A stretch of DNA of 64,000 bases. It comes from an uncultured Leptospira sp. (GTDB lineage: Bacteria; Spirochaetota; UBA4802; UB4802). The DNA lies in contig CAZDWJ010000008.1 in assembly GCA_964509195.1 (NCBI GenBank), forward strand, positions 61,190-125,189, given 5' to 3'. Each line of letters opens with the position of its first letter. The first letter of the stretch is position 1. Below the pieces are notes generated by a model, which did no database searches, was not told the DNA's origin, and was given only the letters and a program-made list of their open reading frames with translations. The position numbers and the translations under genes were made by a program. Shown here piece after piece: positions 15,157 to 49,500 of this stretch.

Positions 15157-15163
15157 TGATACC

Positions 15164-15955
15164 ATGATTGCAATATATAAGAACAAATTACTGCCAATAG
15201 CCATATTATATTTAGTTGTCTTTTTGGGATGTACATCCACACCAGTGAAAGAAACTGAAAAAAAAGAAACTAATGCCATAGCACTTTTAGAAAAAATAAT
15301 ACAATTAAATGCCACGTTGCCGCATACAGTGTCTGCGTCGTTCAGGATTGAGAGCATGTCCAAAAATAGTTTCAAGACTTCGGCAAAATTGCAGTATAAC
15401 GTGGATACAAAGAAAGCACGAATGTCAATTGTGGATTCGGTATTTGGCAGCCAGCTCAGTGTGGTAGTACGTGACAATGATACGCTGTACATTTATCAGC
15501 CTATTGATAATAACTTGCTTGTGTTTGATTATTCTAAGTTCCCAGTGCACTCATTCCTGCCGTTTGATATAGATGTTGAACTTATTGATAATCTTTTAAT
15601 AGGGAAAATTCCATTGTTGAAAAATTACTATGCTACTAAAGCTTTAGAATCTGATGGTGAGCAATTTATACTGCTGGAAAATGATACAATGCATCAAACC
15701 ATATCAATGAAAAATGCTATGCTCACAAAGATTTTATTTGTGCAAAAAGGAAGCAATGCCCGATATGAGATATATTTTATTAAGCCAAAGGTAGAAAATA
15801 ATATCTTTACCTGTACTGCAATACGATTTGTTGATGTTACCGGTAAAACAACCTTTGAAGTGACCATGCAGCAGTACACTATTAATGCTAGTGTGCCTGA
15901 TGGGATTGCGGAATTGAAATTGCCCAAAAATACAAAAATAATAGATTACCGATAG
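15164..15955 (+). CDS. hypothetical lipoprotein
   Basis: ATG at 15164 gives MIAIYKNKLLPIAILYLVVFLGCTST (lipobox). The longer track ORF from 15038 would overlap the TPR gene by 119 nt, so the internal start is preferred. Confidence 0.5.
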   Translation: MIAIYKNKLLPIAILYLVVFLGCTSTPVKETEKKETNAIALLEKIIQLNATLPHTVSASFRIESMSKNSFKTSAKLQYNVDTKKARMSIVDSVFGSQLSVVVRDNDTLYIYQPIDNNLLVFDYSKFPVHSFLPFDIDVELIDNLLIGKIPLLKNYYATKALESDGEQFILLENDTMHQTISMKNAMLTKILFVQKGSNARYEIYFIKPKVENNIFTCTAIRFVDVTGKTTFEVTMQQYTINASVPDGIAELKLPKNTKIIDYR

Positions 15956-33498: not shown

Positions 33499-35646
33499 TC
33501 ATACGTGAGCAGAAATCAAAACTACAGATGACATTTTTTTAGTTAAATAGCTTTCCTGGGAAGGGATTGACGTACCTTGTAGTATTATATCATCAGGTGT
33601 ATGCAGTGAGGTATCGACCACACGTAGCCATTGACTACCGTTAAATGGCTTTGGTAGTGAAAATGCGAGGTCATATTCAGATGCGTTGAATATCATATAT
33701 ATATCATTATCGGGAGTACCGTATTGAAGCTTAGCATATGCACCGTTAAGATGCAATGCAATAGAATGGCTGTAATATCCAAGATCAGGGGCATGGCAGT
33801 TAACACCGTGCCACACGCAATCAGGGTGTGTAAACCCTTGCTGGGCAGTGCCTGATAAAAAGTGCTTTTGCCGTAGTACTGGATGCATTTTGCGAAATTG
33901 AATCAAACACCGCACAAATCTATGTATATCATCAAATTGCTGCATCCTGTCCCAGTTTATCCAGGATATTTCGTTATCCTGGCAGTAGGCGTTGTTGTTA
34001 CCATTTTGAGTTCTACCCATCTCATCTCCTGCAAGCATCATGGGTACACCCTGAGACAAAAACAGTGTAGTAAAAAAATTTTTTATCTGCTGTCTTCTGA
34101 TTGTAAGTATTTCAGGCGGAGCATCATGACCTTCAACGCCGTAGTTACAACTCAAGTTATTGTTGTCCCCGTCTTGATTATTTTCACCATTAGCAAGATT
34201 GTGTTTTTCATTAAATGAAACTAAATCCAGCATAGTAAAGCCATCGTGGCAGGTGATAAAATTAATGCTGTGCAGTGGACTTCTGTTGGTTTTTTGGTAA
34301 ATATCAGGGCTGCCAATAATGCGCTGCATAAAGTTGACAACGGTATCATTATCGCCACGCCAGAAATGACGGACATCGTCACGGAATTTGCCATTCCATT
34401 CGGCCCACCGTCCGGGGAAATGGCCTATTAAGTACGCTCCGCCAGCATCCCAGGCTTCGGCAATAATTTTAGTGTTGCGCAAGATGGGGTCTTCGGATAT
34501 TTTTTCGATAAGTGGTGGATTTTGCAAAATATTTCCATCCTGATCCCTTCCAAGTATTGAAGCCAGATCAAATCTAAATCCATCAACATGCATATCAACA
34601 ACCCAGTAGCGCAAGCAGTCTAAGATAAAATCACGTACCAGTGGATTATTGCAGTTAACTGTGTTACCGCAGCCGGAAAAATTTTGATAAAATCGTTTGT
34701 TCTCTTTCAGCATGTAGTATATAGAATTATCAAAACCTTTAAAACTTATTGTGGGACCCAGATGGTCACCCTCAGCGGTATGATTGAATACAACGTCTAA
34801 AAACACCTCAATGCCAGCTTCATGAAAATCACGGATCATTTCCTTGAATTCATTAATCTGCTGACCCATTGTGCCACTTGATGAATATGTTGATTTTGGT
34901 GCAAAGAACGCAATGGTGCTGTAGCCCCAGTAGTTTTTGAGTCGCTCACCGGTAAACGGGTTCACATTAACATTTTCAAATTCATCAAATTCCTGAATGG
35001 GCATAAGTTCAACGGCAGTAATTCCCAATTCTTTCAAATAGGGTATCTTTTCGGTTAAGCCTTTAAAGGTACCTCTGTGCTTGACATTTGATGATGGATG
35101 ATAGGTAAACCCTTTTACATGAAGTTCGTAGATGATGGTATCTTCCATTGGAGTTTGAATGGGACGATCGTACCAATCAAATTCAGTGTCTACAACAATA
35201 CATTTGGGTGATTCTTTATAGTTTTTATCTGTAGAAAACGAAAGGTCCTCATCCGGGTGCCCCTTAATGTATCCACAGGCTTTGCTGAAATCCCATATAT
35301 GATTGCCACTGATAGCTTTAGCATAGGGGTCAAGCAACAGCTTATTTTTATTAAAACGATGCCCCTGATTAGGCTGATATGGTCCGTCAACTTTATAGCC
35401 ATAAAGCTGTCCTTCACGAATACCAGCAATCCAGATATGCCAGACATCACCTGTTTTATTGAGTTTGGGATCTAATTCAATTTCAATATATTCTTCAGTT
35501 TCTGATGAAGAAAATAGCAGGATTGAAACAGCTGTGGCATGACGGCTGAATAGCGCAAACCGTGCACCATGCCTGTCTAAATGAACACCTAATGGCAGGG
35601 GAGTCCCCGGCAACGTAACAAAATGATGTTGTTTAATGGGATGCAT
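33499..35646 (-). CDS. glgX: glycogen debranching enzyme (GH13 isoamylase-type)
   Basis: 715 aa. GH13 catalytic regions (DGFRFDLASIL; EAWD). N-terminal CBM48-like region. Confidence 0.85.
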   Translation of the reverse strand: MHPIKQHHFVTLPGTPLPLGVHLDRHGARFALFSRHATAVSILLFSSSETEEYIEIELDPKLNKTGDVWHIWIAGIREGQLYGYKVDGPYQPNQGHRFNKNKLLLDPYAKAISGNHIWDFSKACGYIKGHPDEDLSFSTDKNYKESPKCIVVDTEFDWYDRPIQTPMEDTIIYELHVKGFTYHPSSNVKHRGTFKGLTEKIPYLKELGITAVELMPIQEFDEFENVNVNPFTGERLKNYWGYSTIAFFAPKSTYSSSGTMGQQINEFKEMIRDFHEAGIEVFLDVVFNHTAEGDHLGPTISFKGFDNSIYYMLKENKRFYQNFSGCGNTVNCNNPLVRDFILDCLRYWVVDMHVDGFRFDLASILGRDQDGNILQNPPLIEKISEDPILRNTKIIAEAWDAGGAYLIGHFPGRWAEWNGKFRDDVRHFWRGDNDTVVNFMQRIIGSPDIYQKTNRSPLHSINFITCHDGFTMLDLVSFNEKHNLANGENNQDGDNNNLSCNYGVEGHDAPPEILTIRRQQIKNFFTTLFLSQGVPMMLAGDEMGRTQNGNNNAYCQDNEISWINWDRMQQFDDIHRFVRCLIQFRKMHPVLRQKHFLSGTAQQGFTHPDCVWHGVNCHAPDLGYYSHSIALHLNGAYAKLQYGTPDNDIYMIFNASEYDLAFSLPKPFNGSQWLRVVDTSLHTPDDIILQGTSIPSQESYLTKKMSSVVLISAHV

Positions 35647-36110
35647 GTTTAAATAAATATGATTAGCTTTGTTGTGTAAATAGTTACAGCATACAAATAT
35701 GGATGTATGCGCATAACAGTCAATGCAAATTTTTCTTAAACAGTGGTATGTTTATAGCTTATTGTGAAACAGTCCAATACCTTTGGAAAACAAAGATATA
35801 AAAATGCTATAGTAATGGAAGCTAAAAGTGGGGATAAAATGCGCAATGTAAACCATAGCGGTAAAAAAAAGATCAATGTATTTTAAGTTGGTTTATGCTC
35901 TGCAATATTAAAAAATGATATATGGTGTTTCAGTAAAGTGTTAGTTAATACGTTAGATTTAAGGGAACTTGAGTAAATGCATTTATAAAGAAGTACTCAT
36001 GTCATCCACCAATACACTGTGAAGATATTGCTTTAAAAAAAATTTAAAAAAATTCATTGACAAATCTAGTATATATAATAACATCAGACCATATGATAAT
36101 CTGATTTTTT

Positions 36111-37121
36111 TTGTGGACAAAAACCATGATTAAAATTGCTGAATTGCTTCCCCCGCGCCCTTCTGCATTGTGGACCATGGTAAAGCAATGTGGAATAGAG
36201 TATGTTGTTGGCGGTATGCAGCATTACGCTGGCTGGGAAAATATGCCAAAGGACTTCTGGCCATGGAGCTATAATTCACTGGTTCATATTAAGACCAATT
36301 ATGAAAACGGAGGATTTACGCTTGGAGTCATTGAATCCCGACCTCCAATGGAAAAAATAAAATTAGGCCTGCCGGGAAGGGATGAAGAAATTGAAAATGT
36401 CATAATGCTTATACAGAACATGGGGAAACTGGGCATTCCCGTATGGTGTTATGAATGGATGCCCGTGTTTGGTTGGACAAGGACTTCAACAACAACGCCC
36501 ATCCGCGGGGGTGCAATGGCTACCTCTTATGATCATGCACTAATGGAAAAGGCTCCAATGACTGAGTACGGAATTGTAACCGAAGAAACATTATGGAAAA
36601 ATCTACAGTATTTTCTAAACGCCGTTATCCCTGAAGCAGAAAAAGCAGGTGTAAAATTAGCCATGCATCCAGATGATCCACCCATTTCTCCTATTCGCGG
36701 TGTTGCGCGTATTATGCGCTCGGTTGAACATTTTCAAAAGTTACTGGATCTTTATCCAAGTGAGTTTAATGGCATTGCATTGTGTCAGGGTAATTTTGCA
36801 TTGATGACGGATGATCTTCCTGCTGTAATCAGAAAATTTGGAAAACAGGGTAAAATCTTTTTTGTCCATTTCAGGAATGTAAAGGGAACCGCACACAAAT
36901 TTACTGAAACATTTCATGACGATGGGATGATTGATATGTACGAATGCATGAAGGCATACTATGAGATTGGCTATGAGGGACTGATGCGTCCTGATCATGT
37001 TCCCACTATGGAAGGCGATAGCAATGATAATCCTGCCTATTCCTCAATTGGTAGGCTTTTTGCCATTGGGTACATAAAGGGCCTGGCGGAAGCAGTTGAA
37101 AAAAATCAATGCGGAAGGTGA
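36111..37121 (+). CDS. uxuA: D-mannonate dehydratase
   Basis: Conserved blocks match E. coli UxuA: VWCYEWMPVFGWTRT (VCYNFMPVLDWTRT), AMHPDDPPISPIRGVARI (AVHPDDPPRPILGLPRI), MRPDHV...AYSSIGRLFAIGYIKGLAEA (MRPDHG...GYSAIGRLKGLAEVRGV). Confidence 0.85.
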   Translation: MWTKTMIKIAELLPPRPSALWTMVKQCGIEYVVGGMQHYAGWENMPKDFWPWSYNSLVHIKTNYENGGFTLGVIESRPPMEKIKLGLPGRDEEIENVIMLIQNMGKLGIPVWCYEWMPVFGWTRTSTTTPIRGGAMATSYDHALMEKAPMTEYGIVTEETLWKNLQYFLNAVIPEAEKAGVKLAMHPDDPPISPIRGVARIMRSVEHFQKLLDLYPSEFNGIALCQGNFALMTDDLPAVIRKFGKQGKIFFVHFRNVKGTAHKFTETFHDDGMIDMYECMKAYYEIGYEGLMRPDHVPTMEGDSNDNPAYSSIGRLFAIGYIKGLAEAVEKNQCGR

Positions 37122-37129
37122 ATTAGATA

Positions 37130-37830
37130 TGGATACCATACAACCAATTAAGCGTAATAAGCTCACTGAATCGATAGTGAATCTGGTATTGACAAATATT
37201 AAAAATGGCACTCTTCCTCCAGGAAGCAAATTGCCTCCCGAGCGGGAATTGATGAAAAAATTGCAGGTGGGGCGTTCCACATTGCGTGAAGCGGTACAGT
37301 CGCTTGCACTTATGGGTATACTGGATGTAAAACCGGGTGAAGGAACTTTTGTAAGAACTATAGCCAAAGAAGAAATTATTGGCCCTCATTTATTTGTTCC
37401 ATTGATTGATAACGAAAGTATGGCAGATTTTTTTGAAGCTCGCCTTTTAATTGAACCACGCATCGCTGCGCTGGCAAGCAAAAGAAGGAATGCAGAGGAT
37501 ATTAAAGCTATTGAAGATACATTGGTAAAGACAAAACAACATATCAATAGTGGGGAAGATGTGGATCGCTTTGCAGGTCAGTTCCACTTGCAGATTGCAA
37601 AGGCATCAAAAAATATTGTGTGTGTCCGCTTTATGGAAGCCATTCTTTCATTCCTGGTTGGGAAAAGAGAAAACGCTGAACGTAATAAAGCCTTTTTACA
37701 ATGGGAGTATGAATCACACGAAAGCATTTTTACAGCAATAAAAAAGGGAGATGAAACAAAAGCATATAAGGCTATGGAGCAACATATTCAGGCAGTTTCA
37801 CAGTGGTATAAAAAATTAGATGTTGTATGA
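37130..37830 (+). CDS. GntR family transcriptional regulator, FadR/FCD subfamily
   Basis: N-terminal winged HTH (LPPGSKLPPERELMKKLQVGRSTLREAVQSL) and a C-terminal FCD-type all-helical domain. ATG at 37130 is chosen to avoid overlap with uxuA. Confidence 0.8.
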
Positions 37831-37853
37831 TTTTTCACTGATGGAGGTTTGCC

Positions 37854-40700
37854 GTGTATGGGAAACTATCTATTCTATTTTTGATACTTTTTTTTAATGT
37901 TGGGTATGCGATAGCAGCCACGTTCAATGTACTCATCTATCCAACGCCACTAGTATACATACACAATCAATCATATTTTCAGAGAATCATTATACAGGCT
38001 CATCAAGAGTTTGAAGGTGAAATTGTTGCCTGGATGGATGGTGTCAGCACAAAGAAGATAGTTACTACTCCAACAACTAATACAGCTATCGACTGTAAAA
38101 GAAATAGTATCAACTCGCCATCACAATTGAAAATTACTATAAGAAGGAATGATTCTATAGTTGCACAAAAAATCCTGTCAATACCTCCGGTAAAGGAATG
38201 GAAAATCTACTGTGTGCCCTTTGCGCACGTAGACATAGGTTTTACACAATCACAAAAGAATGTCCGCATTCAGAATCTGCGCAATATCGATACACATCTT
38301 TCCTTGTGCCAAAAGACAAAAAACTATCCGCCCGGCTCTCGATTTAAGCTTTTTACGGAAGTGAGCTGGCCTATTATTGAATACCTCAATGACCCGGCAA
38401 CACCTCACAGCAACAAGAATACACTTATTAAAGCATTGAAAAATGGTGATGTTGAGCTGGGTGCTTTTGTCATTTCTCATCAAAATAGGTTTATGAGTAC
38501 TTATGCACTTTTATCATCAGTGCGGCATACACTTACTATCGCACAAAAATACAACGTTGCCGTGAAAACTGCATGTATTCATGATGTCATGGATTTTTCC
38601 AAATTGCCAAAAGTCCTATATGCCAATAATATACCATACTGCCTGATTGGCCCCAATGACTCACGATATATAGTGCCGCCCCTTTTTTATCTAGCATCAC
38701 CTGATGGAAGCGCAAAGGTGCTGGCGTGGCATACCGTTGGGCTTAACGGGTATGGCGAAAATTTTGATTTGAATATGCGTCTTACATTGCCCTTCAAAGA
38801 CGATGATTTTAGCATAATGGAAACCAGCGTTGCACAGCATTTGGCGCAACTTGAAAAAGGATATCCCACAGAAGAAATTTCACGGTATTATGATTATGCA
38901 AACAAACAGTGGAACTATCCCTATGATGCATATCTTTTACCGTATTATCCGTCCCAGGGTGGCGACAATCAGCCTCAGACGATTGTACCTTCAGAAATTG
39001 CAAAGAGATGGAATGCAAAATTTATTAATCCAAAGATAGTCATTGCAACGCCTGCGGATTTCTTTGATTATGTATCAGCTGCGTATGGCGCACAGATTCC
39101 GATTATAAAAGGGGAATTGCCGCCATTCTGGGGTGAACAGATATATTTAGATTTTATTCAGGTTGATCCGCAGCGATTATCAATTAACTACTGGTATGAT
39201 TATGCACACCATTCACGCGGGATACATATGGTACAATCGCTACTTCTTGGTAAGCCTGTTGATATTACATCGTATAGTACACAAAGTCTTGAAGGGTACA
39301 TGGCAATCATACTTAATAATGACCACAATCCCAGACCTGTGCCATTCGGGAAAACGCATTACACAAAGCAGGATGTTCAAGACTGGATGGACACACGCAA
39401 TCAGTGGGTATATGCGCCTTTGAATGTTATGAAGGATGCAAAAGATGTACAGCAAAGCCGTAAGGAAGATGCTTTGTGGACGCTGGTGAACACACAAACA
39501 AATCCTCTAATTCTTGAAAATGCATTCTACCGTATTGCATTTGATAAAACGAAAGGCTGTATTACCAGTATTTTTGATGCACAGCTACAAAAGGAATTGG
39601 TAAACACACAGCACCGCTACGGCTTTAATCAATACGTTATAGGGGTACGGGGTGAAAACACTGGGAAGCGCAATTATTTTGACACCCAGGAAGGATTCAA
39701 ACGCGTCATATCCACGGTATATACAAATCCCAACAACGATTACAAAATAATTGTTAAAGGGTCAGAGCGTTCCTATTACAAGGGTATGGAATTGCTCTCT
39801 GAATTTTTGCATAAAGCATTTGGCATAAAGTTACCACCAACTTTGTTGAAAGTAGCGTATTTTTTCTATCAGCTGTTTACACCATCACTGTCGCTTACAC
39901 AGGAGATTATCATACCTGCTAATGAAAAGCGAATTGATTGTATACAACATTTTGAAGGTACTGCACCTCAAATAGCGGAACATTACTTTGCCTATCCTTT
40001 GGTTTTTGATGAGCTATCGTATGATTCTGGCTTTACGGTTGTAAAATGGAAGAGTCAAGACAATAGCGGTGACCTTATCCCAGCCGCTAAAAATACTGCA
40101 CCATTTAGAAGCATTAACGATACGCTGTATCCATTTCAGTGGATGTACGCAATCCCAACTTCTTTGTATTGTGATGGGTTTGTGTTGCAAAAAGACCGTT
40201 CACACTATGCATTATTTATCACACACAATAGCAAGGCGATAGTTCCAGATAATGATTCAAGTGCATTTTATCACTGTTGCATTGGATGGTCGTTGTGGGG
40301 TACTTTAGGGCTGGGACGCAATTTGCCAGATACTATCGCATTTAAAAGCACTTTTACAAGCTTTACGGCACACACAAAGAATGAAGCGATAGCAACTGCG
40401 TACAAACTTACATTTGATATATCAGGCCACACGAATCAATCGGCTGTAGAGTCACGTAATAGTAATGTGCGTGTTGTATATCTTCAACCTCTTTCAGAAA
40501 AAAGGATTGTTGTTGGTGTTTATGAGCTATCAGGCACGATGCAGTTTACTGAGCTTGTGATAAACACAAAACGTAGGATACTCAAGGCATATCATTCAGA
40601 CATTAATGGAAAAAAAATCAAAGCGCTGCAATTATCAGGAACTTCATTACCATTGAGTCTACATCCACATCAACTATCGTTTATAACATTTGAATTATAA
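37854..40700 (+). CDS. secreted glycoside hydrolase family 38-like protein (putative alpha-mannosidase-like), 948 aa
   Basis: Signal peptide. VPFAHVDIGFTQ resembles the GH38 N-terminal metal-binding motif (VPHSHNDPGW / HMHWDREW), but the first His is Phe here. An extra roughly 120-aa N-terminal domain is present. Family assignment is tentative. Confidence 0.4.
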   Translation: MYGKLSILFLILFFNVGYAIAATFNVLIYPTPLVYIHNQSYFQRIIIQAHQEFEGEIVAWMDGVSTKKIVTTPTTNTAIDCKRNSINSPSQLKITIRRNDSIVAQKILSIPPVKEWKIYCVPFAHVDIGFTQSQKNVRIQNLRNIDTHLSLCQKTKNYPPGSRFKLFTEVSWPIIEYLNDPATPHSNKNTLIKALKNGDVELGAFVISHQNRFMSTYALLSSVRHTLTIAQKYNVAVKTACIHDVMDFSKLPKVLYANNIPYCLIGPNDSRYIVPPLFYLASPDGSAKVLAWHTVGLNGYGENFDLNMRLTLPFKDDDFSIMETSVAQHLAQLEKGYPTEEISRYYDYANKQWNYPYDAYLLPYYPSQGGDNQPQTIVPSEIAKRWNAKFINPKIVIATPADFFDYVSAAYGAQIPIIKGELPPFWGEQIYLDFIQVDPQRLSINYWYDYAHHSRGIHMVQSLLLGKPVDITSYSTQSLEGYMAIILNNDHNPRPVPFGKTHYTKQDVQDWMDTRNQWVYAPLNVMKDAKDVQQSRKEDALWTLVNTQTNPLILENAFYRIAFDKTKGCITSIFDAQLQKELVNTQHRYGFNQYVIGVRGENTGKRNYFDTQEGFKRVISTVYTNPNNDYKIIVKGSERSYYKGMELLSEFLHKAFGIKLPPTLLKVAYFFYQLFTPSLSLTQEIIIPANEKRIDCIQHFEGTAPQIAEHYFAYPLVFDELSYDSGFTVVKWKSQDNSGDLIPAAKNTAPFRSINDTLYPFQWMYAIPTSLYCDGFVLQKDRSHYALFITHNSKAIVPDNDSSAFYHCCIGWSLWGTLGLGRNLPDTIAFKSTFTSFTAHTKNEAIATAYKLTFDISGHTNQSAVESRNSNVRVVYLQPLSEKRIVVGVYELSGTMQFTELVINTKRRILKAYHSDINGKKIKALQLSGTSLPLSLHPHQLSFITFEL

Positions 40701-40714
40701 AAGGAGGAAAACGT

Positions 40715-41419
40715 ATGGCACCAGCATATTCGCATGACGAAATTATAAAACTTTGTGAGCGATTGGAGAAAACCTACACGCCAGCAGTGTGTGATACGCT
40801 TGATGAGATGGGCTTTATGCATCAGGCAATGTGTTCTGGATTTATGCCCATTATGCCACGCGCTGCTGTTGCAGGGCCTGCATTTACAATGGAAGAAGCA
40901 AAGACACGCAAAAGCACACGATTAAAAGAGTATGATCCGGAATTTGTTGCCAAGGTGCTTGAGGATCTGTTTGGCACCATGCAAAAGGGGCAGGTGGTAG
41001 CAGTGAATACTAATGAATTTTACGGTGCAGGTGCGTGGGGTGAGCTTATGTCAACGACGTGCAAATTTTTTGGCGGCGTAAAAGGCGCTGTGGTTGATGG
41101 GCCAATTCGGGATATTAATCGCATTCTGGAAATTGAGTTTCCTGTGTGGGCACGCGGTAATATCCCCACCGATTCAATAGGAAGGGTTGATCTTGTTGGC
41201 ATTGGTGGTCCTATATGGTGTGGTGGCGTGCGGGTAAATCCCGGTGACATTATTTTTGCCGACTGTGATGGAGTGGTAGTTATTCCAATGAAGGATGTTG
41301 ATTTAAAAGAAGTGGTTGAAAAAGCAGAAGAGGTGGTGCAGGCAGAACGGCGTTCACGCCAGGAGATACGGCAGGGCAAGTCATTGCTTGATGTGTACCG
41401 CAAATATGGAAAGCTGTAA
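40715..41419 (+). CDS. RraA-family protein (class II pyruvate-aldolase / RNase E inhibitor fold)
   Basis: 234 aa. GGVKGAVVDGPIRDINRILEIEFPVWARG ... VNPGDIIFADCDGVVVIP matches the RraA/HMG-CHA aldolase family pattern. Confidence 0.8.
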   Translation: MAPAYSHDEIIKLCERLEKTYTPAVCDTLDEMGFMHQAMCSGFMPIMPRAAVAGPAFTMEEAKTRKSTRLKEYDPEFVAKVLEDLFGTMQKGQVVAVNTNEFYGAGAWGELMSTTCKFFGGVKGAVVDGPIRDINRILEIEFPVWARGNIPTDSIGRVDLVGIGGPIWCGGVRVNPGDIIFADCDGVVVIPMKDVDLKEVVEKAEEVVQAERRSRQEIRQGKSLLDVYRKYGKL

Positions 41420-41433
41420 TGTGAGGAAAGGAT

Positions 41434-42405
41434 ATGAAAACAATAGTTGTAACGGGATGTTCAGGGTATCTGGGGCAGCATGTAGTGCAAACGTTACTAC
41501 AGGAACAATATGCAGTCACCGGCATTGATATAAAAGAATCACCGGCACAGGGTCAGAGCAATTTTACGTTTGTCAAAGGCGATATTGTTGATTCTGAATT
41601 TGTGATGAATGCCTGTAAAAATGCTAATGCCGTAGTCCATTGTGCTGCTGCGCTTGCGCAATTTGTCAAAGATGCACAACGCATGCATGATATAAATGTA
41701 ATTGGTACAAAGAATATCATTGGAGCGTGTAAAAAACATGCCATAAAACAATTAGTATTTATCTCATCGGTTGAAGTGTATGGTATTGATGTGCCCGTTC
41801 CCTGTCCTGAGGATGCACCTTTGCGCCCTGTATGTCCATACGGCGAACACAAGGTTGAAGGGGAGCGGATGTGTGCAGAATTAGCCGGGAAAGGCTGTGG
41901 TGTTGCAATCCTCAGACCACCAACAATTAACGGACCCGGGCAAAACGAGCCTTTCCTTGTTGAACAGATGAAAGCTATAAAACAAGGAAAGCCAGTAATT
42001 CTTCCAGGTGGAGGAAAAACACGATTGCAGATGGTGGATGTCCGCGATGTTGCTCAGGCAGTGCTGCTGTCACTCAAAAAAGTTAGCAAAGGAGTACTCA
42101 TTGCAAATATTGCTAGCGATAATGTGCCTACCATCCGCCAGATGGTAAAAGCTCTGTTTAATCATGCAGGAAAGAAAGAAAAGATACTATCTGTACCTGC
42201 ACCTGTAGCACGTGCTATTGTCAAAACCCTTTCATTGTTTGGCATATCACCGCTGGAACCACAACATCTGGAAATAGCACTGCGCGATTATGTGTTTGAT
42301 AATACACGAGCAAAGAAAGAGTTGGGATGGAAACCAACCAAAAATGACATTGAAAGCGCTATTGATGCATATGAGTGGTTTATCCACCACAATCCTTCGA
42401 CGTAG
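41434..42405 (+). CDS. NAD-dependent epimerase/dehydratase family (extended SDR) protein
   Basis: VTGCSGYLGQHVV Rossmann motif, catalytic YxxxK (YGEHK). 323 aa. Confidence 0.8.
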   Translation: MKTIVVTGCSGYLGQHVVQTLLQEQYAVTGIDIKESPAQGQSNFTFVKGDIVDSEFVMNACKNANAVVHCAAALAQFVKDAQRMHDINVIGTKNIIGACKKHAIKQLVFISSVEVYGIDVPVPCPEDAPLRPVCPYGEHKVEGERMCAELAGKGCGVAILRPPTINGPGQNEPFLVEQMKAIKQGKPVILPGGGKTRLQMVDVRDVAQAVLLSLKKVSKGVLIANIASDNVPTIRQMVKALFNHAGKKEKILSVPAPVARAIVKTLSLFGISPLEPQHLEIALRDYVFDNTRAKKELGWKPTKNDIESAIDAYEWFIHHNPST

Positions 42406-42540
42406 CATTGAAAATAATGGAATTAGCTATGAAACAGGGGGTTCCACTGCAAAAATTAGTCACTCATAAATTTAGCATTGATGAAGCTGAAGCGGCATTG
42501 CTACGAAGTGATTACATGAAAGCAGTAATTGTGCCATAAG
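42375..42540 (+). pseudogene. relic 3' end (about 50 codons) of a zinc-dependent MDR dehydrogenase gene
   Basis: Translates to ...SFDVALKIMELAMKQGVPLQKLVTHKFSIDEAEAALLRSDYMKAVIVP*. This is the typical C-terminus of threonine/sorbitol-dehydrogenase-like MDRs (..iTH.F.L.e...Af......K.vi). No N-terminal part exists. It overlaps the SDR gene's last 30 nt in another frame. Confidence 0.45.
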
Positions 42541-42560
42541 TATATTGATGAGGATGAGTC

Positions 42561-43262
42561 ATGAACATTTTTTTTATATTAATTGGACAGGCAACCGTTG
42601 TTATTAACGTAAATGGGATAGTCTTTATGACCGATCCCTGGTGGGGCTCTTTTGAATTTTTGCGTGCAGTCCCATTGTCAATAAATCCAGAGGAAATATC
42701 ACCTCTGCATTATATGCTAGTTTCACATAATCACATTGATCATTGGTGTGAGAGTGCCATCAAACTGGCAAAAGAAAAGGATTGCATGGTTATAGGGTCA
42801 ACAAAATCGGTAAAACGTGCCCGTAAAAAGAGTGTTAAACAATGTAAGGCTCTGACCCCGGGCGATAGTGTTGATTGCAATGGTGTTATGGTGTATGCGG
42901 TTCCAGGATTTCATCCATTTGCAAAGGATGCAATAGGCTTTATCATACAAAAAGGTAATATTACACTGTATTTTTCGGGGGATACGCTGTACACTGAAAA
43001 TTTACTCAAGGCTCTGACCCCATACTCAGTAACTATCGCCATGATACAGGTTGCCTGTTCCACCTACCCACTGGTGGGTAAAGACGGGATGGATTTGGAG
43101 GCGGCATCACGCTTTGTTGCAGATGTAAAACCTGGGATTGTAATACCCATACACTATCAGATAAAGGGAAAGTACCTCACTTACGCGCAGTTACAAAACT
43201 GGAACGTTGATGCACAAAAAATTATTTTGCCCCATGGGAAGGAGTTTCATTTGCAAATATAA
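42561..43262 (+). CDS. MBL-fold metallo-hydrolase (possible lactonase)
   Basis: 233 aa. HNHIDHW metal-binding motif. Confidence 0.7.
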   Translation: MNIFFILIGQATVVINVNGIVFMTDPWWGSFEFLRAVPLSINPEEISPLHYMLVSHNHIDHWCESAIKLAKEKDCMVIGSTKSVKRARKKSVKQCKALTPGDSVDCNGVMVYAVPGFHPFAKDAIGFIIQKGNITLYFSGDTLYTENLLKALTPYSVTIAMIQVACSTYPLVGKDGMDLEAASRFVADVKPGIVIPIHYQIKGKYLTYAQLQNWNVDAQKIILPHGKEFHLQI

Positions 43263-43508
43263 GGGAACTTTTAAAAAACCATTTATAAGGTTGTTCCCTT
43301 GTGGGCACAATATATAGGCAAAAACCGCTTTTTTGCTGCTAATTGTAAGGATGAAAGTGGTTTTTAGAGGTGCCCATAATTTCTGGGATTTTAGTGCAAT
43401 TGTTGTAACAAAATGAGAATAGCATGAAAATGTTATATTGATCACTACCAAAAGGAGAAACATCCAGGGTTGTAAAGACTAAATTTTCGATCGCATAATG
43501 ACCTCAAA

Positions 43509-44858
43509 ATGACATTACAAAAAAATATTTTGGAGGAAAGTATGATAGAAAAGCCACCTTCTGGTTTTAACCTCATCAAAGTGTTGGGTCCGGGGCTTGT
43601 GTGGTCGGCAAGTGCAATTGGGGTGTCAGAGCTTGTGTTTGCCACACGTTCTGGCGCGTTATTTGGATATTTGTTGTTATGGGCGCCGATTGTATCTCTT
43701 GTGATGAAGTATGCTATCTTTGAGCTGGTTGGCCGATACACCATTGCAACAGGTCAAAATGTCCTGATTGCATTTGCCCAGGTTGAAATTGATCTAAAAC
43801 TTTTCAAACTAAAAACCGGGTGGGTGATAACACTTTTCTGGATAGTGTTTATTGCAAGTGTTTCAGGAATAGCAGGTATTGCCTTGTCGGTTGGTAGCTG
43901 CATATACGGGCTTGTTCCTGCAATTTCAATGGAGATGGCAACGGTGTGTTCGATAGTAGCTGTTGGAATAATTTTGTATTTAGGAAGTTATGTAACGCTG
44001 GAAAAAATATCACGGGTGCTGGTTTTTGTAATGATACTGTTTTTAGTGTATGCATTAATCGAAACTTCTCCCAATCCAGCTGAGATGGCAGGTGGTCTGC
44101 TACCACGGGCGCCGTTTTACACGTTACGTGAGCTCATTCCGCTTTTAGGGTGGACTGGTGCAGGAGCCATAGGCGTGGTATGGTATTCATTATGGATAGA
44201 AGGCAGTAAACGTGGTAAAGGCGATAACACCATAGATACAGACGAAGACAAGCACAGGATAAAAAAATGGATAACCATTAATCAAATAGATTTAAGCATT
44301 AACACTCTCATCACCGCACTGTTAACAGTATTGTTTTTGATTGCAGGTGCAGTGATATTATACCCCAGAGGTATAGTTCCTAAAGGTGAGCAATTAGGCC
44401 TGCACATATCACAGATTGCAGGGGAGAGCTTTGGCAAAGCAGGCGAGATAATTTTTCTTGTTGGCATCTTTGGCACACTGTTTAGCACATTGCTTGCAAA
44501 TATTGATGGATTATGCCGTGTAGCATCTAACTCTGTGTGGTATAGGCGCAAAAAAGATGGCGATAGCAAGTTGCATTATTATAGACTTTTTGTTTTTGTT
44601 TACGTGATACTCACAGCTCTGTTTGCAGTGGTTTTTCCTGCCCCGGTAATACTATTGCAAATTTCTGCAATCATTGATACAGTTTTTTTGCCACTGGTTA
44701 TTGGTCTTGGTATCTACATCTGCCACACACACCTGCCAGATATCTACCGGCCGGGGAAGACACTTACCATAACTGCAATAGCATCAGCACTTTTTTTTAC
44801 TTTTTTTATTGGACTATTTTTCTGGGCTGTGATAATGAAAGTTAACTTTTCAATGTAA
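43509..44858 (+). CDS. Nramp-fold (APC/LeuT superfamily) transporter lacking the canonical metal-binding motifs
   Basis: 449 aa, 11-12 TM helices. The TM1 region GPGLVWSASAIGVSE...FGYLLLW aligns to the Nramp GPGFLMSIAYIDPGN...GFKLLW block with DPGN replaced by GVSE. The TM6 MPH position reads WYS. Confidence 0.6.
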   Translation: MTLQKNILEESMIEKPPSGFNLIKVLGPGLVWSASAIGVSELVFATRSGALFGYLLLWAPIVSLVMKYAIFELVGRYTIATGQNVLIAFAQVEIDLKLFKLKTGWVITLFWIVFIASVSGIAGIALSVGSCIYGLVPAISMEMATVCSIVAVGIILYLGSYVTLEKISRVLVFVMILFLVYALIETSPNPAEMAGGLLPRAPFYTLRELIPLLGWTGAGAIGVVWYSLWIEGSKRGKGDNTIDTDEDKHRIKKWITINQIDLSINTLITALLTVLFLIAGAVILYPRGIVPKGEQLGLHISQIAGESFGKAGEIIFLVGIFGTLFSTLLANIDGLCRVASNSVWYRRKKDGDSKLHYYRLFVFVYVILTALFAVVFPAPVILLQISAIIDTVFLPLVIGLGIYICHTHLPDIYRPGKTLTITAIASALFFTFFIGLFFWAVIMKVNFSM

Positions 44859-44868
44859 GCACGTAAGT

Positions 44869-45891
44869 ATGAATACTGTTATGTTCGATAGCTCAAAATA
44901 TTTTATCTGCTTTGGGGAAGTGCTCCTACGCATGTCACCACCAGATACTCAGCAGTTGATGCAAACAAATGTGTTTCATTCATATTTTGGTGGTGCTGAA
45001 GCCAATTGTGCAGTGTTGCTATCGCAGCTTGGATTAAAAACAAAATTAATTACTGCAATACCTGATAATGACCTTGGGAAGGCTTTAGTGCGATATTTTA
45101 GATCATTTGGTATTGCTATGGATAATGTCATAGTAGTGCAAGATGCACGAGTGGGAGTTTATTTTTATGAAAAAGGCATAGGTGTGCGTCCTTCACGATT
45201 AATATACGACCGGGGTCACAGTGCGTTTGCATTAATACAAAAAGGTGACATCAACTGGGAAGAGGTTTTGAAAGACTGTGGCTGGTTTCATACTACAGGG
45301 ATAACGCTTTCACTATCGCCGGTAATAGTTGAAGAAACACTGAAAGCATGTGACATTGTGAAGAGTACTCACGGCATTGTATCGTTTGACATTAATTATC
45401 GCTCAACATTATGGAAAGATATACAGTTAGCTAAAAGTATTATTGGCGAATTTGTAAAAAAAGTAGATGTGTTAATTGGGAATGAAGAACATATAAAGAT
45501 GCTTTTATTGTCGGAGAATGTATCACACTATTATGATATTATAGATTATCTTTTTACAAAGTTTCCCAATTTGAACAGTATATTGCTAACACATCGATAT
45601 GGTACAACCGCTTCTGAGGTTGAAATAGGAGCAGTAGCAGCAACACATGATGCTAGTACAGAATTAAAAATTAGAAAACTGCATAATGTTGTTGACCGGG
45701 TGGGTTCAGGAGACGCGATGGCAGCAGCGTTTATGTACGGATTAATGAGTAGCTACACGTTAGAATACTGTGTTGATTTTGCTATAGCAGCTGGTGGTCT
45801 GGCGCATATGATCGATGGTGATAATTTTATTGTGAGTGCTAACGATATCCTTACAGTAATGAAAGATGCAGGCTGGCAATTAATCCGGTAA
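44869..45891 (+). CDS. kdgK: PfkB-family sugar kinase, 2-dehydro-3-deoxygluconokinase-like
   Basis: 340 aa. GGAEAN, DINYRSTLW (KdgK DNNYRPRLW) and the C-terminal GSGDAMAAAF anion-hole motif. Confidence 0.75.
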   Translation: MNTVMFDSSKYFICFGEVLLRMSPPDTQQLMQTNVFHSYFGGAEANCAVLLSQLGLKTKLITAIPDNDLGKALVRYFRSFGIAMDNVIVVQDARVGVYFYEKGIGVRPSRLIYDRGHSAFALIQKGDINWEEVLKDCGWFHTTGITLSLSPVIVEETLKACDIVKSTHGIVSFDINYRSTLWKDIQLAKSIIGEFVKKVDVLIGNEEHIKMLLLSENVSHYYDIIDYLFTKFPNLNSILLTHRYGTTASEVEIGAVAATHDASTELKIRKLHNVVDRVGSGDAMAAAFMYGLMSSYTLEYCVDFAIAAGGLAHMIDGDNFIVSANDILTVMKDAGWQLIR

Positions 45892-46860
45892 GTGGGGGGG
45901 GTTATGGTATCAAAAAAAAGAAGATACATCATAGCTCTTGTAATCGCAGCATGCATTGTACTGGTGGTAATCTGTAAACCAGTTGATAAAGGAAAACCAT
46001 ATAATGATTACTTTGCTTCACTAAATAAAGAATTAAAAACAAGTGGGATTGCATTACCGTGTATCATAATAGATCTTGACTGAGTAGACCATAATATACA
46101 TCAAATGAACAGTTTACTGAAAGCTCCACTTAATTATCGTATAGTAACAAAATCACTGCCTTCCATAGAGTTGCTGGATTATGTGATGAAAAAAAACCAG
46201 CACTAATAAGCTCATGGAATTTCATCAACCATATCTGTCGCTTATAGTAAAAAAGTATGGTTATAACCTGGATATTCTTTTGGGTAAGCCGTTTCCCATA
46301 CAAAGCGTACAAAAATTTTATAATGATTTTCCAAAGAGTGACTATCAGCAGTTATTTGGTGAATGATATTGCAGCAGGCTCATGTGTGGTTAAACCATCT
46401 ACTTTTGATTTTTTTACTCTTGATACACATATTCCAGCACTATTTATTGCAGCTCCAATTTTGAAAAAAATTAATAGCTATGAGGTGCCATTTCTTGAAC
46501 TGTTTAACTGACTGATAGAGTGATGGGATCCAAACTGCAGGCAAACATATTATACGTATGGTGGTGGGTGGAACGAACTTATAGATTCTCCTGAAGGTGT
46601 TTTTGTAAATGCACTGACTGCAAGCCCTCCCAACGAAAATTTGCTTCCCAATCAGAGTATGCTGAATGGGTCATCGTCAACAAAACTTGAAGTGGGGGAT
46701 TTTGTCTTTTATAGGCCAAAACAGGGGGATGCGTTATTTCATTTCTGAGATATTATCGTTATTAGGAATGGTAAAATCATTGCATCGTGGAAACCATTTC
46801 CTGAAAGATTTTAATTTTACAATATCTTTACAGGGTCTTCATAATTTCTTTATAATTATG
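45892..46860 (+). pseudogene. frameshifted remnant of a DSD1-family PLP enzyme gene (D-serine deaminase / D-threonine aldolase-like, alanine-racemase-fold)
   Basis: Segments in three frames: ...GIALPCIIIDLD* / VDHNIHQMNSLLKAPLNYRIVTKSLPSIELL / KLMEFHQPYLSLIVKKYGYNLDILLGKPFP / EGVFVNALTASPPNENLLPNQSMLNGSSSTKLEVGDFVFYRPKQGDALFHF* / DIIVIRNGKIIASWKPFPE. They follow the N- and C-terminal domain order of DSD1 enzymes but are interrupted by multiple stops and frameshifts. Confidence 0.5.
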
Positions 46861-47005
46861 AGATTTGTTACAGTTAATAGTTAATTCCTATCAGTTATTG
46901 GAATACATTTTTTCAATTTCATATCTGTTGTAGTGGTATTGCTTTTAGCAGCAGCATTGGAAAGTGTATTAAAGGAATTTATAAAACAAATAATAGTAAA
47001 TTGCT

Positions 47006-47914
47006 ATGTTAAAAGATACTTTAAAATCAGCACTTAATATCCACAACGTAAGCGACAAAATGGTGAAATATATCTTCGCTGTTGTGGGATTTTTATCTGT
47101 TTCGTTTTTGTTTTTGATCATGATATTCCTCTTCAAGGAAGGTCTTCCAATTTTTAAAACGGTCAGTCTAAAGGATTTCATTTTTGGAACAAGTTGGTAT
47201 CCAACGTCAGAACCTCCAAAATTTGGGACGTTGCCATTGATTGTAGCATCATTATCAGTTACATTTGTTGCTGCTATTTTAGCTGTGCCATTCAGTTTAG
47301 GGATAGCAATCTATTTATCAGAATTGGCACCTGCATTTGTCCGTGAAATCGTCAAGCCAACCATTGAACTTATAGCATCTATTCCATCGGTTATCATTGG
47401 TTTTTTTGGAATGGTTGTTATTGCTCCATTTCTACAGTACCATTTTGATATTGATACTGGGTTGAATCTTTTTAATGCTTCAATCATGCTTGCTTTTATG
47501 GCAATACCAACAATCGCAAGCATATCAGAGGATGCTTTATCATCTGTACCGATATCATTGAAAGAGGCATCATACGCGCTTGGTGCAAACCGTTGGCAGA
47601 CAATTGTGCACATCACTATGCCTGCAGCTCTTTCAGGTATATGGACAGCTATTATACTAGGTATAGCACGAGTTCTTGGCGAAACAATGGTGGTGCTTAT
47701 GGTAGCTGGTGGTGCAACAACATTTCCCACATCGCTGTTTGACCCGGTGAGACCATTGACATCAAATATTGCTGCTGAAATGGCAGAGGCATCATATCGC
47801 AGTGACCATTATTTTGCATTGTTTGCAATAGGCATAATATTGTTTCTGCTTACGATGCTTTTTAATATTATAGCTAACTACCTTTCATTACGATATAAAT
47901 TCAAATATCATTAA
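47006..47914 (+). CDS. pstC: phosphate ABC transporter permease
   Basis: 302 aa, 6 TM helices, EAA-like loop region. 8 nt upstream of pstA. Confidence 0.85.
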   Translation: MLKDTLKSALNIHNVSDKMVKYIFAVVGFLSVSFLFLIMIFLFKEGLPIFKTVSLKDFIFGTSWYPTSEPPKFGTLPLIVASLSVTFVAAILAVPFSLGIAIYLSELAPAFVREIVKPTIELIASIPSVIIGFFGMVVIAPFLQYHFDIDTGLNLFNASIMLAFMAIPTIASISEDALSSVPISLKEASYALGANRWQTIVHITMPAALSGIWTAIILGIARVLGETMVVLMVAGGATTFPTSLFDPVRPLTSNIAAEMAEASYRSDHYFALFAIGIILFLLTMLFNIIANYLSLRYKFKYH

Positions 47915-47922
47915 AGGAAACT

Positions 47923-48789
47923 ATGGCATCATTACAGGCAAAAGCGAAAGCAATTGAAAAAACATCATTCATAATAATCAGTTCTCTGTCATATATCATA
48001 ATAGCGTTCCTGTTGTTTGTGCTGGGGTACATATTTTTACAGGGTTATCGAGCATTATCATGGGAATTTTTAACTGCATTCCCAAAAAACGAAATGCGTG
48101 AGGGGGGAATCTACCCGGCAATATTAGGAACATTCTACCTTATGGTAGGCTCTTCAGTTATATCGGTTCCTATTGGTATCATGACAGCAATATATTTGAC
48201 TGAGTATGTGGAAAATATTAAGGTGCTCCAATTCATACGGTTGGGTATCAATAATCTAGCTGGTGTACCATCGGTAGTATTTGGCCTTTTTGGATTAAGT
48301 GTTTTTGTTATATTCCTGGATTTTGGTTCTTCTATTGTTGCTGGATCACTAACATTGGGAATTCTCAACCTTCCGCTCGTCATACGTTCAACCGAGGAAG
48401 CACTGCTAACAGTGCCAATTTCATATCGTGAAGCTTCGTTATCGTTAGGTGCAACCAAATGGCAGACAATTTATAAGATAGTTCTGCCAACAGCTCTACC
48501 GGGTATACTGACGGGCATTATGCTGTCACTGGGAAGAGCAGCAGGGGAGACAGCTCCGATAATGTTTACCTGCGCTACATTTTACACACCGCATATCCCT
48601 GACTCCCTGTTCAGTGAAGTGATGGCGCTGCCCTATCACATTTATGTACTGGCTACAGCAGGAACTCACATTGAAGCAACACGGCATATACAATATGGAA
48701 CAGCGATAGTACTTATTGCACTGGTGTTGGGATTAAATTTTACCGGCATGGTATTGCGGTACAAATACAGAAAGAAATTTAAACAGTAG
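47923..48789 (+). CDS. pstA: phosphate ABC transporter permease
   Basis: 288 aa. PstA-type permease with conserved loop region. Confidence 0.85.
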   Translation: MASLQAKAKAIEKTSFIIISSLSYIIIAFLLFVLGYIFLQGYRALSWEFLTAFPKNEMREGGIYPAILGTFYLMVGSSVISVPIGIMTAIYLTEYVENIKVLQFIRLGINNLAGVPSVVFGLFGLSVFVIFLDFGSSIVAGSLTLGILNLPLVIRSTEEALLTVPISYREASLSLGATKWQTIYKIVLPTALPGILTGIMLSLGRAAGETAPIMFTCATFYTPHIPDSLFSEVMALPYHIYVLATAGTHIEATRHIQYGTAIVLIALVLGLNFTGMVLRYKYRKKFKQ

Positions 48790-48961
48790 TGTTTTTATTT
48801 TACTCTAAAAGTTTTAATTAAATTGCACCAGCCTCTTTTGATAAAAAATGTGATTTTCATTCTGTATCTGTGACGATTTTGCACTGCAATGAAATTGTTA
48901 AGATGATATTGTTAACAAGCACACATTGTGATAAACTGTAATAATGAAAATATTTACATAG

Positions 48962-49156
48962 AATGATGAAAAGAATACACTATTGAAAAGAACCGGAGTA
49001 TTTCTTTTTAAGGTTGTGGTTAATTGTATTCAAGAGGGCAAATTATTGTCAATTGTTGAGCATAAAAATCCAGATAGATATCCTAACCAAAGGATGTACA
49101 TAATTGAGTTTAACAATTATGTATATTTAGTCCCTTTTATTAAAACTGAAAAGTAA
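48962..49156 (+). pseudogene. possible remnant of a small toxin gene (partner of the adjacent BrnA-like antitoxin relic)
   Basis: Open frame without ATG: ...KRTGVFLFKVVVNCIQEGKLLSIVEHKNPDRYPNQRMYIIEFNNYVYLVPFIKTEK*. A short ATG frame MMKRIHY* precedes it in frame +1. Composition resembles small toxins that pair with COG3514-type antitoxins. Family assignment is uncertain. Confidence 0.25.
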
Positions 49157-49237
49157 ATTTTTTTGAAAACAATTATTCCCATAAGAAGAGCAACGAAATT
49201 TTCTCTAGAGGAAAATAAAAAAACAAATTTAGTAAAT

Positions 49238-49500
49238 ATGAAAAGAGATGTAGTAGAATTTTATAAAAATAATGAGTTAGAAAGAAGTTAAGGGGATAAA
49301 GAATAAAATTAAAAGACATGGAAGCCATGCAAAAGCTGCTTTAAAGAACGATAAACGCGTAAATATACGAATTTCACAAAAGAATCTTGAATCATTACAA
49401 AATAGCGTTGGAAGAAGGTATTCCTTACCAAACTTTGATGTCCAGTGTACTTCGTAAATATGCAAATGGGAAATTAGTTGAAGTTAAGAAATATAAATAA
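49238..49500 (+). pseudogene. BrnA-like (COG3514, ribbon-helix-helix) antitoxin gene disrupted by frameshifts
   Basis: Frame 1: MKRDVVEFYKNNELERS*. Frame 2: ...KRHGSHAKAALKNDKRVNIRISQKNLESLQN. Frame 3: IALEEGIPYQTLMSSVLRKYANGKLVEVKKYK*. The joined text matches the BrnA hallmark K.V..Rld.d.l......G.gYQT.in..Lr.Y. The second shift is at the A-run TTACAAAATAGCG (about 49396-49408). Confidence 0.4.

Follow-up and report, generated by a model that had tools for sequence, protein, structure and literature searches.

A Conserved Sugar-Acid Gene Cluster Points to a Probable Carbohydrate Substrate for an Nramp-Related Transporter without Canonical Metal Ligands

What would a transporter of the Nramp family carry when the residues that bind metal in canonical Nramps are absent and its gene lies among those of sugar-acid catabolism? 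The question is raised by an open reading frame (ORF) at 43509-44858 on the + strand of the window, a 64,000-nucleotide stretch of DNA from an uncultured Leptospira sp. (contig CAZDWJ010000008.1). An earlier note, made from the sequence alone, had described the product as an Nramp-fold transporter that had lost both metal-coordinating motifs and might carry a sugar or sugar acid. The reading favoured here, to which we assign a probability of roughly 0.55, makes the protein an importer of the carbohydrate, most likely mannose, that feeds an oxidative hexose pathway resembling the Entner-Doudoroff route.

The ORF is intact and encodes 449 amino acids. A GGAGG Shine-Dalgarno sequence (43532-43536) is separated by a 5 nt gap from an ATG at 43542, and the closest orthologs (P0002-P0006) are 438 amino acids long and start at the Met equivalent to M12. 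Translation therefore probably begins at M12, 33 nt 3′ of the mechanical ORF start at 43509, giving a probable coding region of 438 amino acids (43542-44858, + strand). The protein passes the Pfam model Nramp (PF01566; 66.2 bits versus a gathering cutoff of 29.8) and the NCBIfam model NF037982 (Nramp_1, "Nramp family divalent metal transporter"; 107.5 bits versus a cutoff of 50), and fails the MntH/Nramp equivalog models NF001923 (48.5 versus 430) and TIGR01197 (32.1 versus 272.5). A PDB search with the single sequence matched no solved structure; a profile of the 23-member family matches DraNramp (E = 2.4e-6), BfraNramp, EleNRMT, and human NRAMP1. The AlphaFold2 model built on the 23-member alignment (pLDDT 77.6, pTM 0.81) displays 11 transmembrane (TM) helices, interrupted at residues 45-46 and 217-219, and its best structural matches in Foldseek are all Nramps, at TM-scores of 0.65-0.81 and 15-19% identity. 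The earlier description of an Nramp-fold transporter devoid of canonical metal ligands is supported. The protein is a LeuT-fold secondary transporter from the "Nramp-related" (non-Slc11) part of PF01566.

In a profile alignment of the 23 members with DraNramp, residues D56-P57-G58-N59 of the latter stand opposite G38-V39-S40-E41 in TM1 (codons 43620-43631, + strand), which upholds the register in which GVSE had been read in place of the DPGN motif. Across the family, G38 and V39 never vary, Ser, Ala, or Gly stands at position 40, and position 41 is Glu in 18 members, Ser in four, and Cys in one. The MPH motif of TM6 is likewise absent, as the earlier note had claimed, but its replacement was misplaced there: the proposed WYS (W225-Y226-S227) lies four residues too far downstream. 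DraNramp residues A227, M230, P231, and H232 align instead with A218, I221, G222, and V223, inside a segment of unwound TM6 (G217-A218-G219-A220-I221-G222-V223, codons 44157-44177, + strand) that matches G-A-T-V-M-P-H of DraNramp. This register is supported by the predicted helix break at 217-219, with which it agrees. Within the segment, G217, A218, G219, A220, and G222 are invariant in the family, position 221 is Ile, Met, or Val, and position 223 is Thr or Val. Taken together, D56, N59, M230, and H232 of DraNramp correspond to Gly, Glu or Ser (Cys in one member), Ile/Met/Val, and Thr/Val. In TM3, the places of the acids D131 and E134 are taken by invariant G123 and L126, with moderate alignment confidence at these positions. 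An alignment artefact hiding the motifs nearby, the possibility that the earlier note had singled out against itself, was considered and rejected: all 23 members lack DPGN, DP.N, and MPH strings over their whole length, and the absence of the motifs is real.

Ninety-seven columns are invariant across the 23 members, which come from several phyla, and these columns are concentrated in TM1, TM6, and TM8. They include S35, G38, V39, T46, R47, K67, E72, E208, W215, G217-A220, G222, W225, S227, and W229, and further R235, D261, S326, T327, D333, R337, Q384, and D390. Conservation is highest in TM1a (0.87), TM1b (0.82), and the TM6 break (1.00). Against five Spirochaetota orthologs, the transporter gene has a dN/dS of 0.04-0.07, reflecting strong purifying selection. 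The substrate site is remodelled and maintained, not decayed. Gly and Ala abound in the region, and the invariant residues W215, W225, W229, and R47 flank it, the last adjoining the predicted TM1 break. The signature of the clade reads GV[SAG][ES]LVFATR in TM1 and GW.GAGA.G..W.S.W in TM6. The invariant S326-T327 pair in TM8 was entertained as a Na2-type sodium site and dropped, given that an S-T pair is common to the whole alignment of relatives and to the "SST" motif in TM8 of canonical Nramps; being shared so widely, it is uninformative on the coupling ion.

Were the motifs lost, as the earlier note supposed? Relatives down to ~25% identity all have G-x-[GSA]-[EH] at the DPGN position. The PF01566 family comprises Slc11 proper, NRMT, and an "outgroup" without the Slc11-specific residues of TM1 and TM6 (PMC9606685; PMC4072509), and these "Nramp-related/outgroup" proteins form a paraphyletic grade from within which the canonical Nramps arose (PMC9606685; PMC12873925). 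Since the relatives share the same pattern and the published phylogenies derive the canonical Nramps from within the outgroup, DPGN and MPH were most likely never present in this lineage, and the word "lost" has to be given up. A 2026 preprint from the Gaudet lab names "NRMT-like" and "G-motif" groups, described as "entirely uncharacterized" except for EleNRMT and a hypothesised Mn importer, MntG (PMC12873925). With its PF01566 membership, a Gly at the TM1 Asp position, and none of the Slc11-specific residues, the transporter belongs to the outgroup or "G-motif" grade. Like other proteins of the grade, it has an 11-TM LeuT/Nramp fold, lacks the acids of the TM3 proton pathway, and is less than 30% identical to Slc11 proteins. 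The clade differs from the grade at large in forming a single 50%-identity cluster with its own TM1/TM6 signature and an invariant catabolic neighborhood, and in lacking the TM3 Glu that many outgroup members keep.

The clade is sharply bounded. A word-indexed search returned ~30 clusters at 48-100% identity, after which scores dropped from 358 to 154 bits. In an exhaustive search of 1.84 billion 50%-identity representatives, 3083 matched at E ≤ 1e-3; the clade accounted for one full-length representative (713 bits), and the next match scored 255 bits. Members occur in 23 of 185,579 species genomes, all of them metagenome-assembled genomes (MAGs), from at least five phyla. The carriers are Spirochaetota (78-94% identity), probably the phylum to which the window also belongs, together with Anaerolineae, Dehalococcoidia, Thermodesulfobacteriota, a delta-proteobacterium, Bacteriovoracaceae, Syntrophomonadaceae, another member of the Bacillota, and Leptospiraceae.

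In the window, the transporter is the seventh gene of a cluster of eight on the + strand, in the order uxuA, GntR/FCD-family regulator, GH38-like glycoside hydrolase, RraA-like protein, extended short-chain dehydrogenase/reductase (SDR), metallo-β-lactamase-fold (MBL) hydrolase, transporter, and KdgK-like kinase. The neighbors are as first described, with the MBL-fold hydrolase upstream and the KdgK-like PfkB kinase downstream in a sugar-acid locus. A tblastn synteny survey covered 31 loci (L001-L031), and the tally was made over the 23 from species genomes (L009-L031), of which 18 had enough flanking sequence to count as complete and five lay on contigs ending early. RraA-like, SDR, and MBL genes lie on the transporter's strand in 18 of 18 complete loci; the five shorter contigs carry whatever parts of the cluster they reach, with zero counterexamples, and the SDR gene is present wherever a contig extends to its position. 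The Pfam-annotated contigs of ~50%-identity homologs display the same gene set. It is this synteny, conserved across phyla, that makes a non-metal, carbohydrate-type substrate the leading hypothesis. The earlier suggestion of a sugar or sugar acid is strengthened to that extent as a hypothesis.

A component of the cluster that varies is an acid-sugar dehydratase, which belongs to one of three unrelated types depending on lineage. UxuA-type enzymes occur in Spirochaetota, where orthologs with 83-88% identity to the UxuA of the window stand beside the transporter gene in L009 and L011-L015. Three Anaerolineae and Chloroflexota loci have an enolase-superfamily enzyme, which is nearest to glucarate dehydratase rather than ManD and scores below the NCBIfam cutoff. 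Nine loci (L016, L018-L020, L025-L028, and L030) encode an IlvD/EDD-type enzyme scoring just below the NCBIfam cutoff for dihydroxy-acid dehydratase. All nine of the latter also carry a LarA-type nickel-pincer 2-hydroxyacid epimerase gene, found in no locus that uses a UxuA- or enolase-type dehydratase. The nearest NCBIfam models to this LarA homolog are malate racemases, at scores far below cutoff, and the protein falls outside the known gluconate-epimerase/hexonate groups; our guess is that it is a gluconate/mannonate epimerase. The transporter, SDR, MBL, and RraA-like proteins stay orthologous across all dehydratase types. A swapped dehydratase within an otherwise constant set looks like a catabolic pathway with a fixed entry substrate.

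Linkage within the constant set is tight. The MBL gene lies directly upstream of the transporter gene in all UxuA- and IlvD-type loci but L028, where a gene of the major facilitator superfamily (MFS) intervenes, and in L007 the two coding regions overlap. In the majority of loci, the RraA-like protein is the best-conserved cluster product. Its identity across phyla is 73-93% in UxuA-type and most IlvD-type loci, compared with 47-53% for the transporter there outside Spirochaetota, and drops to 56-57% in loci L026 and L030 and 37-38% in enolase-type loci. A PfkB KdgK-like kinase is found in most loci, an Eda aldolase in about half, and a GH38-like enzyme often. Because roughly half of the loci encode both Eda and the RraA-like protein, the latter is not simply a 2-keto-3-deoxy-6-phosphogluconate aldolase. 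The GntR/FCD regulator is kept in the Spirochaetota, delta-proteobacterial, Leptospiraceae, and L028 loci, and Anaerolineae loci have an IclR regulator instead. The SDR, MBL, RraA-like, and LarA-type proteins have only distant matches in the PDB.

A need for an importer follows from the glycosidase. The GH38-like enzyme carries a signal peptide, and its homologs in L009, L011-L014, L027, and L008 all start with a signal-peptide or lipobox sequence; its product would thus be released outside the cytoplasm and would have to be imported. L003 and L005 encode a different GH38/57-like protein beside an MFS transporter. Each cluster was scanned, out to a distance of 3 kb, for other candidates, namely, further polytopic membrane proteins (at least six TM helices) or any ATP-binding cassette (ABC) ATPase. 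Eleven of the 18 complete loci, the window among them, have neither, unrelated pstCA aside.

The analysis establishes family membership, fold, the missing motifs, purifying selection, and the conserved neighborhood; which way the protein transports, what it carries, with which ion it is coupled, and what each enzyme of the pathway does, we infer. On the favoured reading, the exported GH38-like enzyme would release a hexose, most likely D-mannose, which would cross the cytoplasmic membrane via the Nramp-related transporter. The SDR, proposed to be a sugar 1-dehydrogenase, would oxidise the hexose to a lactone, and the MBL hydrolase, a proposed lactonase, would open the lactone to the hexonate. 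Dehydration to 2-keto-3-deoxygluconate (KDG) would be carried out by UxuA in the window and elsewhere by the IlvD-type enzyme together with the LarA-type protein, or by the enolase-type enzyme. The KdgK-like kinase would then phosphorylate the dehydration product, and an aldolase would cleave it: Eda in other loci, and possibly the RraA-like protein in the window. Several observations point to mannose. The UxuA of the window passes the cutoff of the mannonate dehydratase subfamily (NF003027, 252.7 versus 191 bits), GH38 is an α-mannosidase family (the window protein having weak Pfam GH38 matches), and LarA homologs that interconvert mannonate and gluconate exist (PMC7583248). Haloarchaeal β-mannan clusters, moreover, combine ManD, a "UDP-glucose-4-epimerase-like" SDR, an RraA-family protein, and an IclR regulator (PMC10963439).

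How does this reading fare against the evidence that speaks for other cargoes? Several points weigh on it directly. Every carrier is an uncultured MAG and the case is a computational one, and model confidence near TM1 is limited (pLDDT 64-72). The choice of mannose rests mainly on UxuA and GH38 membership since the other enzyme assignments are soft: the SDR, MBL, RraA-like, LarA-type, enolase-type, and GH38-like proteins fall far below curated equivalog cutoffs or have no characterised close relative, and the RraA-like protein, the most conserved of all, has no assigned role. An MFS transporter (GPH-like or ACS-like) occurs in 7 of the 18 complete loci; it could import the carbohydrate there and render the Nramp-related gene redundant. 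The constant partner enzymes, finally, are probably all metal-dependent, the ever-present MBL (HxHxDH) and RraA-like proteins both belonging to metal-dependent families. This last observation, together with the MFS genes, suits a divalent-metal importer with a noncanonical site that loads the metalloenzymes of the operon (MBL, the RraA-like class II aldolase-type protein, UxuA or IlvD, and LarA). In its favour, the protein passes the NCBIfam model named for divalent metal transport. There are also precedents: EleNRMT, although its canonical motif is incomplete, carries Mg2+ and Mn2+ (PMC12873925), and YcsG/MntG, from the Bacillus subtilis pxp operon, raised cellular Mn on overexpression and has been reported to be a Mn2+ importer (PMC10448178). 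A carboxylate could be supplied by E41, the equivalent of N59 in DraNramp, which is present in 18 of 23 members and is Glu or His in most relatives. Against metal import stand the features of the site itself. The TM1 Asp position is an invariant Gly; with Ser or Cys at position 41 in five members, TM1 has no conserved acidic ligand; the TM6 Met and His positions hold Ile/Met/Val and Thr/Val; an invariant Leu stands where even many Nramp-related proteins retain the TM3 Glu; and the invariant R47 brings an Arg next to the predicted TM1 break. Replacement of the metal ligands and TM3 acids, with R47 beside the break, argues equally for an organic substrate, as do regulators of the sugar-acid types GntR/FCD or IclR and the lack of a metal riboswitch in an Rfam search of 35600-46600. 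PxpT, linked genetically to 5-oxoproline use, and a second Nramp-related clade that keeps its place among sugar-oxidation genes (P0033 and P0042) serve as precedents on the same side. A metal importer would, in addition, leave 11 of 18 loci with no linked importer for their pathway despite an exported glycosidase, and would stay constant while the dehydratase variants differ in metal need. We therefore regard metal import as unlikely, though it is the foremost competitor.

A different organic solute of the same pathway is slightly less probable still. The transporter might take up a hexonate or hexonolactone, or an aglycone or co-product set free by the GH38-like enzyme, or it might export a reactive lactone or acid. 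Invariant R47, R235, and R337 could bind a carboxylate, and the nearest constant neighbor encodes a putative lactonase, not a glycosidase. The substrate proposed for the related transporter PxpT, 5-oxoproline, is a cyclic amide carboxylate resembling a lactone acid, and L018 and L019 add an ACS-like MFS transporter typical of acid-sugar uptake, so entry points for acids exist. An imported acid would nevertheless make the constant and most tightly linked steps, SDR and MBL, needless, and efflux would be unusual for LeuT-fold transporters in catabolic operons; this reading is not separable from carbohydrate import by sequence alone. That the gene is a decaying or functionless Nramp relic in a chance location can be practically dismissed. 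The absence of canonical motifs and the unmatched single-sequence PDB search would suit a relic, but the intact reading frame, the low dN/dS, the invariant columns concentrated in TM1, TM6, and TM8, and synteny kept across phyla contradict it already. Import of the pathway's carbohydrate remains the reading we favour.

Comparison with known systems places the clade apart from each of them. Canonical Slc11 proteins (MntH, Nramp, and DMT1) share its fold and the TM1 block GPG...G..(F/Y)G(Y/F).LLW, with DraNramp as the best structural match; none of the four side chains that ligate metal is kept, nor is either TM3 acid (D131 and E134), and the protein fails on DPGN, A..MPH, the TM3 acids, and the MntH equivalog cutoffs alike. 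EleNRMT and NrmT are similar in fold (Foldseek TM-score ~0.7-0.77 to 7qia) and in having neither a full canonical motif nor a proton pathway; the family profile matches 7qia at an E-value of only 1.4e-3. Both NRMT and NRAT keep the TM1 aspartate, in NRMT with changed residues beside it. With Gly at that position, the transporter departs from both, and the parallel drawn with these variants in the earlier note was a loose one. NRMT is frequently associated with an M-box riboswitch or an MgtE fragment (PMC4072509); the transporter is not an NRMT, having Gly for the TM1 Asp, no M-box at E ≤ 1, and no MgtE-like neighbor. A parallel is offered by the YcsG/PxpT/MntG group, where an Nramp-related transporter is likewise encoded in an operon for the breakdown of a small, polar organic molecule, with a GntR-type regulator nearby, and where the same question arises of organic substrate or metal cargo. 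Genetic evidence shows that Corynebacterium glutamicum needs PxpT (Nramp family, TCDB 2.A.55) to grow on 5-oxoproline (PMC13274462). The clade differs in its partners, which are sugar and sugar-acid enzymes, and in its 14% identity to the YcsG model 9a52 in a structural alignment; none of the 23 loci contains pxpABC genes, and the transporter falls outside this subfamily. With SGLT/vSGLT (SSS family) the likeness would be one of mechanism, not of membership: the same superfold, a proposed unwound TM1/TM6 site with aromatic and polar residues, and a carbohydrate operon. No sequence relationship is detectable and no SSS protein is among the top 50 Foldseek matches listed, so that this resemblance is inferred only.

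Nramp-related proteins without DPGN and MPH are already known as a class. The new element is a well-delimited clade whose catabolic context is invariant and yields a testable substrate hypothesis for an uncharacterised grade; the invariant neighborhood points to a short list of candidates, namely, mannose, other hexoses, and their lactones and aldonates. Literature searches turned up no earlier account of the clade, the operon, or a sugar-transporting Nramp relative, and the result is partly anticipated by the work on PxpT. A broader claim, that the clade is the first Nramp-family carbohydrate (hexose, probably mannose) transporter and marks an oxidative hexose pathway, as yet undescribed and horizontally mobile, that combines an extended SDR, an MBL lactonase, an RraA-like protein, and interchangeable dehydratases, we advance tentatively, at somewhat less than even odds. 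If true, it would extend the substrate range of the Nramp family to carbohydrates, and the "Nramp-related" grade would include organic-solute carriers, with metal transport a derived speciality of Slc11; it would thereby bear on the evolution of a metal site in a LeuT-fold carrier. Automated pipelines label Nramp-family proteins as divalent-metal transporters, and the present one passes the NCBI model of that name; a systematic misannotation would be corrected. Roles would also follow for the RraA-like protein, the UPF0173-type MBL hydrolase, the new LarA group, and the divergent exported GH38-like enzyme.

The sugar connection is a trait of certain clades and not general, because most sister clades show no consistent link. 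P0036, P0041, P0070, and the P0122 clade, the last being nearest by profile score, are not sugar-linked or are uninformative. A candidate for another sugar-linked Nramp relative is found in a second Nramp-related clade, P0033 and P0042, whose members are 81% identical, have "GSGE" at the DPGN position, and occupy the same position on two independent contigs (L033, 3918-5354; L036, 4126-5514). Their genes adjoin those of a divergent GFO/IDH/MocA oxidoreductase and a 3-keto-disaccharide-hydrolase-like protein, followed by a Zn-dependent alcohol dehydrogenase (ADH) of the glucose-dehydrogenase type, a classical SDR, and a protein of ~620 amino acids. In L041 (2431-9299; P0122-like), genes for a GH15 enzyme, a glucose-dehydrogenase-type ADH, an Fe/Mn superoxide dismutase, and a baeRF-family protein precede the Nramp-related gene. 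The superoxide dismutase gene lies two genes upstream, mixing a sugar hint with a manganese hint, and the arrangement is not kept in L039. On a 1-Mb contig (L032), two PF01566 genes 5.6 kb apart (7001-8368 and 14003-15316) flank a TonB-dependent receptor and a MIP-family channel.

The remaining genes of the window cluster, all on the + strand, were assigned as follows. The first, at 36111-37121, encodes the UxuA-type mannonate dehydratase (Pfam UxuA, E = 5e-96, in addition to its NF003027 score). It is followed at 37096-37830 by the transcriptional regulator with Pfam GntR and FCD domains, whose best NCBIfam matches are the NanR, LldR, PdhR, UxuR, and ExuR types, all below cutoff. The exported GH38-like protein (37854-40700) has 948 amino acids and a Sec signal peptide (MYGKLSILFLILFFNVGYAIA|AT). 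It matches the Pfam GH38 N- and C-terminal domains weakly and finds no counterpart in the PDB sequence set or NCBIfam; with such marginal domain matches, it may represent a divergent glycoside-hydrolase family. The RraA-like/HMG-CHA-aldolase-family protein is encoded at 40715-41419 (Pfam RraA-like, E = 1.5e-31), and its nearest solved structures are uncharacterised proteins and the HMG/CHA aldolase 3noj. The extended SDR of the NAD-dependent epimerase/dehydratase family (41434-42405; Pfam Epimerase, E = 2e-43) is only distantly related to solved NDP-sugar epimerases. The metal-dependent MBL-fold hydrolase with its HxHxDH motif (42561-43262) matches Pfam Lactamase_B_2 and Lactamase_B_3; its NCBIfam matches, PRK00685 and, second, the UlaG L-ascorbate-6-phosphate lactonase, are both below cutoff. 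Last comes the KdgK-like PfkB sugar kinase at 44869-45891 (Pfam PfkB, E = 2.5e-33), for which the best NCBIfam matches are models of KDG and 2-keto-3-deoxygalactonate (KDGal) kinases, all below cutoff.

An AT-rich spacer of 279 nt (43263-43541, + strand), longer than the equivalent gap in related Spirochaetota loci, separates the MBL and transporter genes. Read directly from the sequence, it contains two hairpins, GGGAAC...GTTCCC just 3′ of the MBL stop codon and GCAAAAA-CCGC-TTTTTTGC, as well as the GGAGG of the transporter gene; it might act as an attenuator or as an internal promoter region. The Rfam search of 35600-46600, spacer included, returned no M-box, yybP-ykoY, or other element at E ≤ 1, and promoter- and terminator-like matches were no commoner than in shuffled sequence. 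The spacer and the region upstream of uxuA share no operator motif of 10 nt or more.

Downstream of the cluster, the 1.1 kb between kdgK and pstC (45892-47005) hold only short ORFs in mixed frames, such as one of 63 amino acids at 45892-46083. In L009 and L010, pstC comes ~0.9 kb sooner, and what the window has in this interval may be left over from a gene in decay or from an insertion. The pstC of the window is not preceded by a visible pstS gene. The region 47006-52587 contains pstC and pstA on the + strand, recognised by sequence and a 6-TM pattern, and phoR-, phoB-, and phoU-like genes on the − strand, read by eye from the translations.

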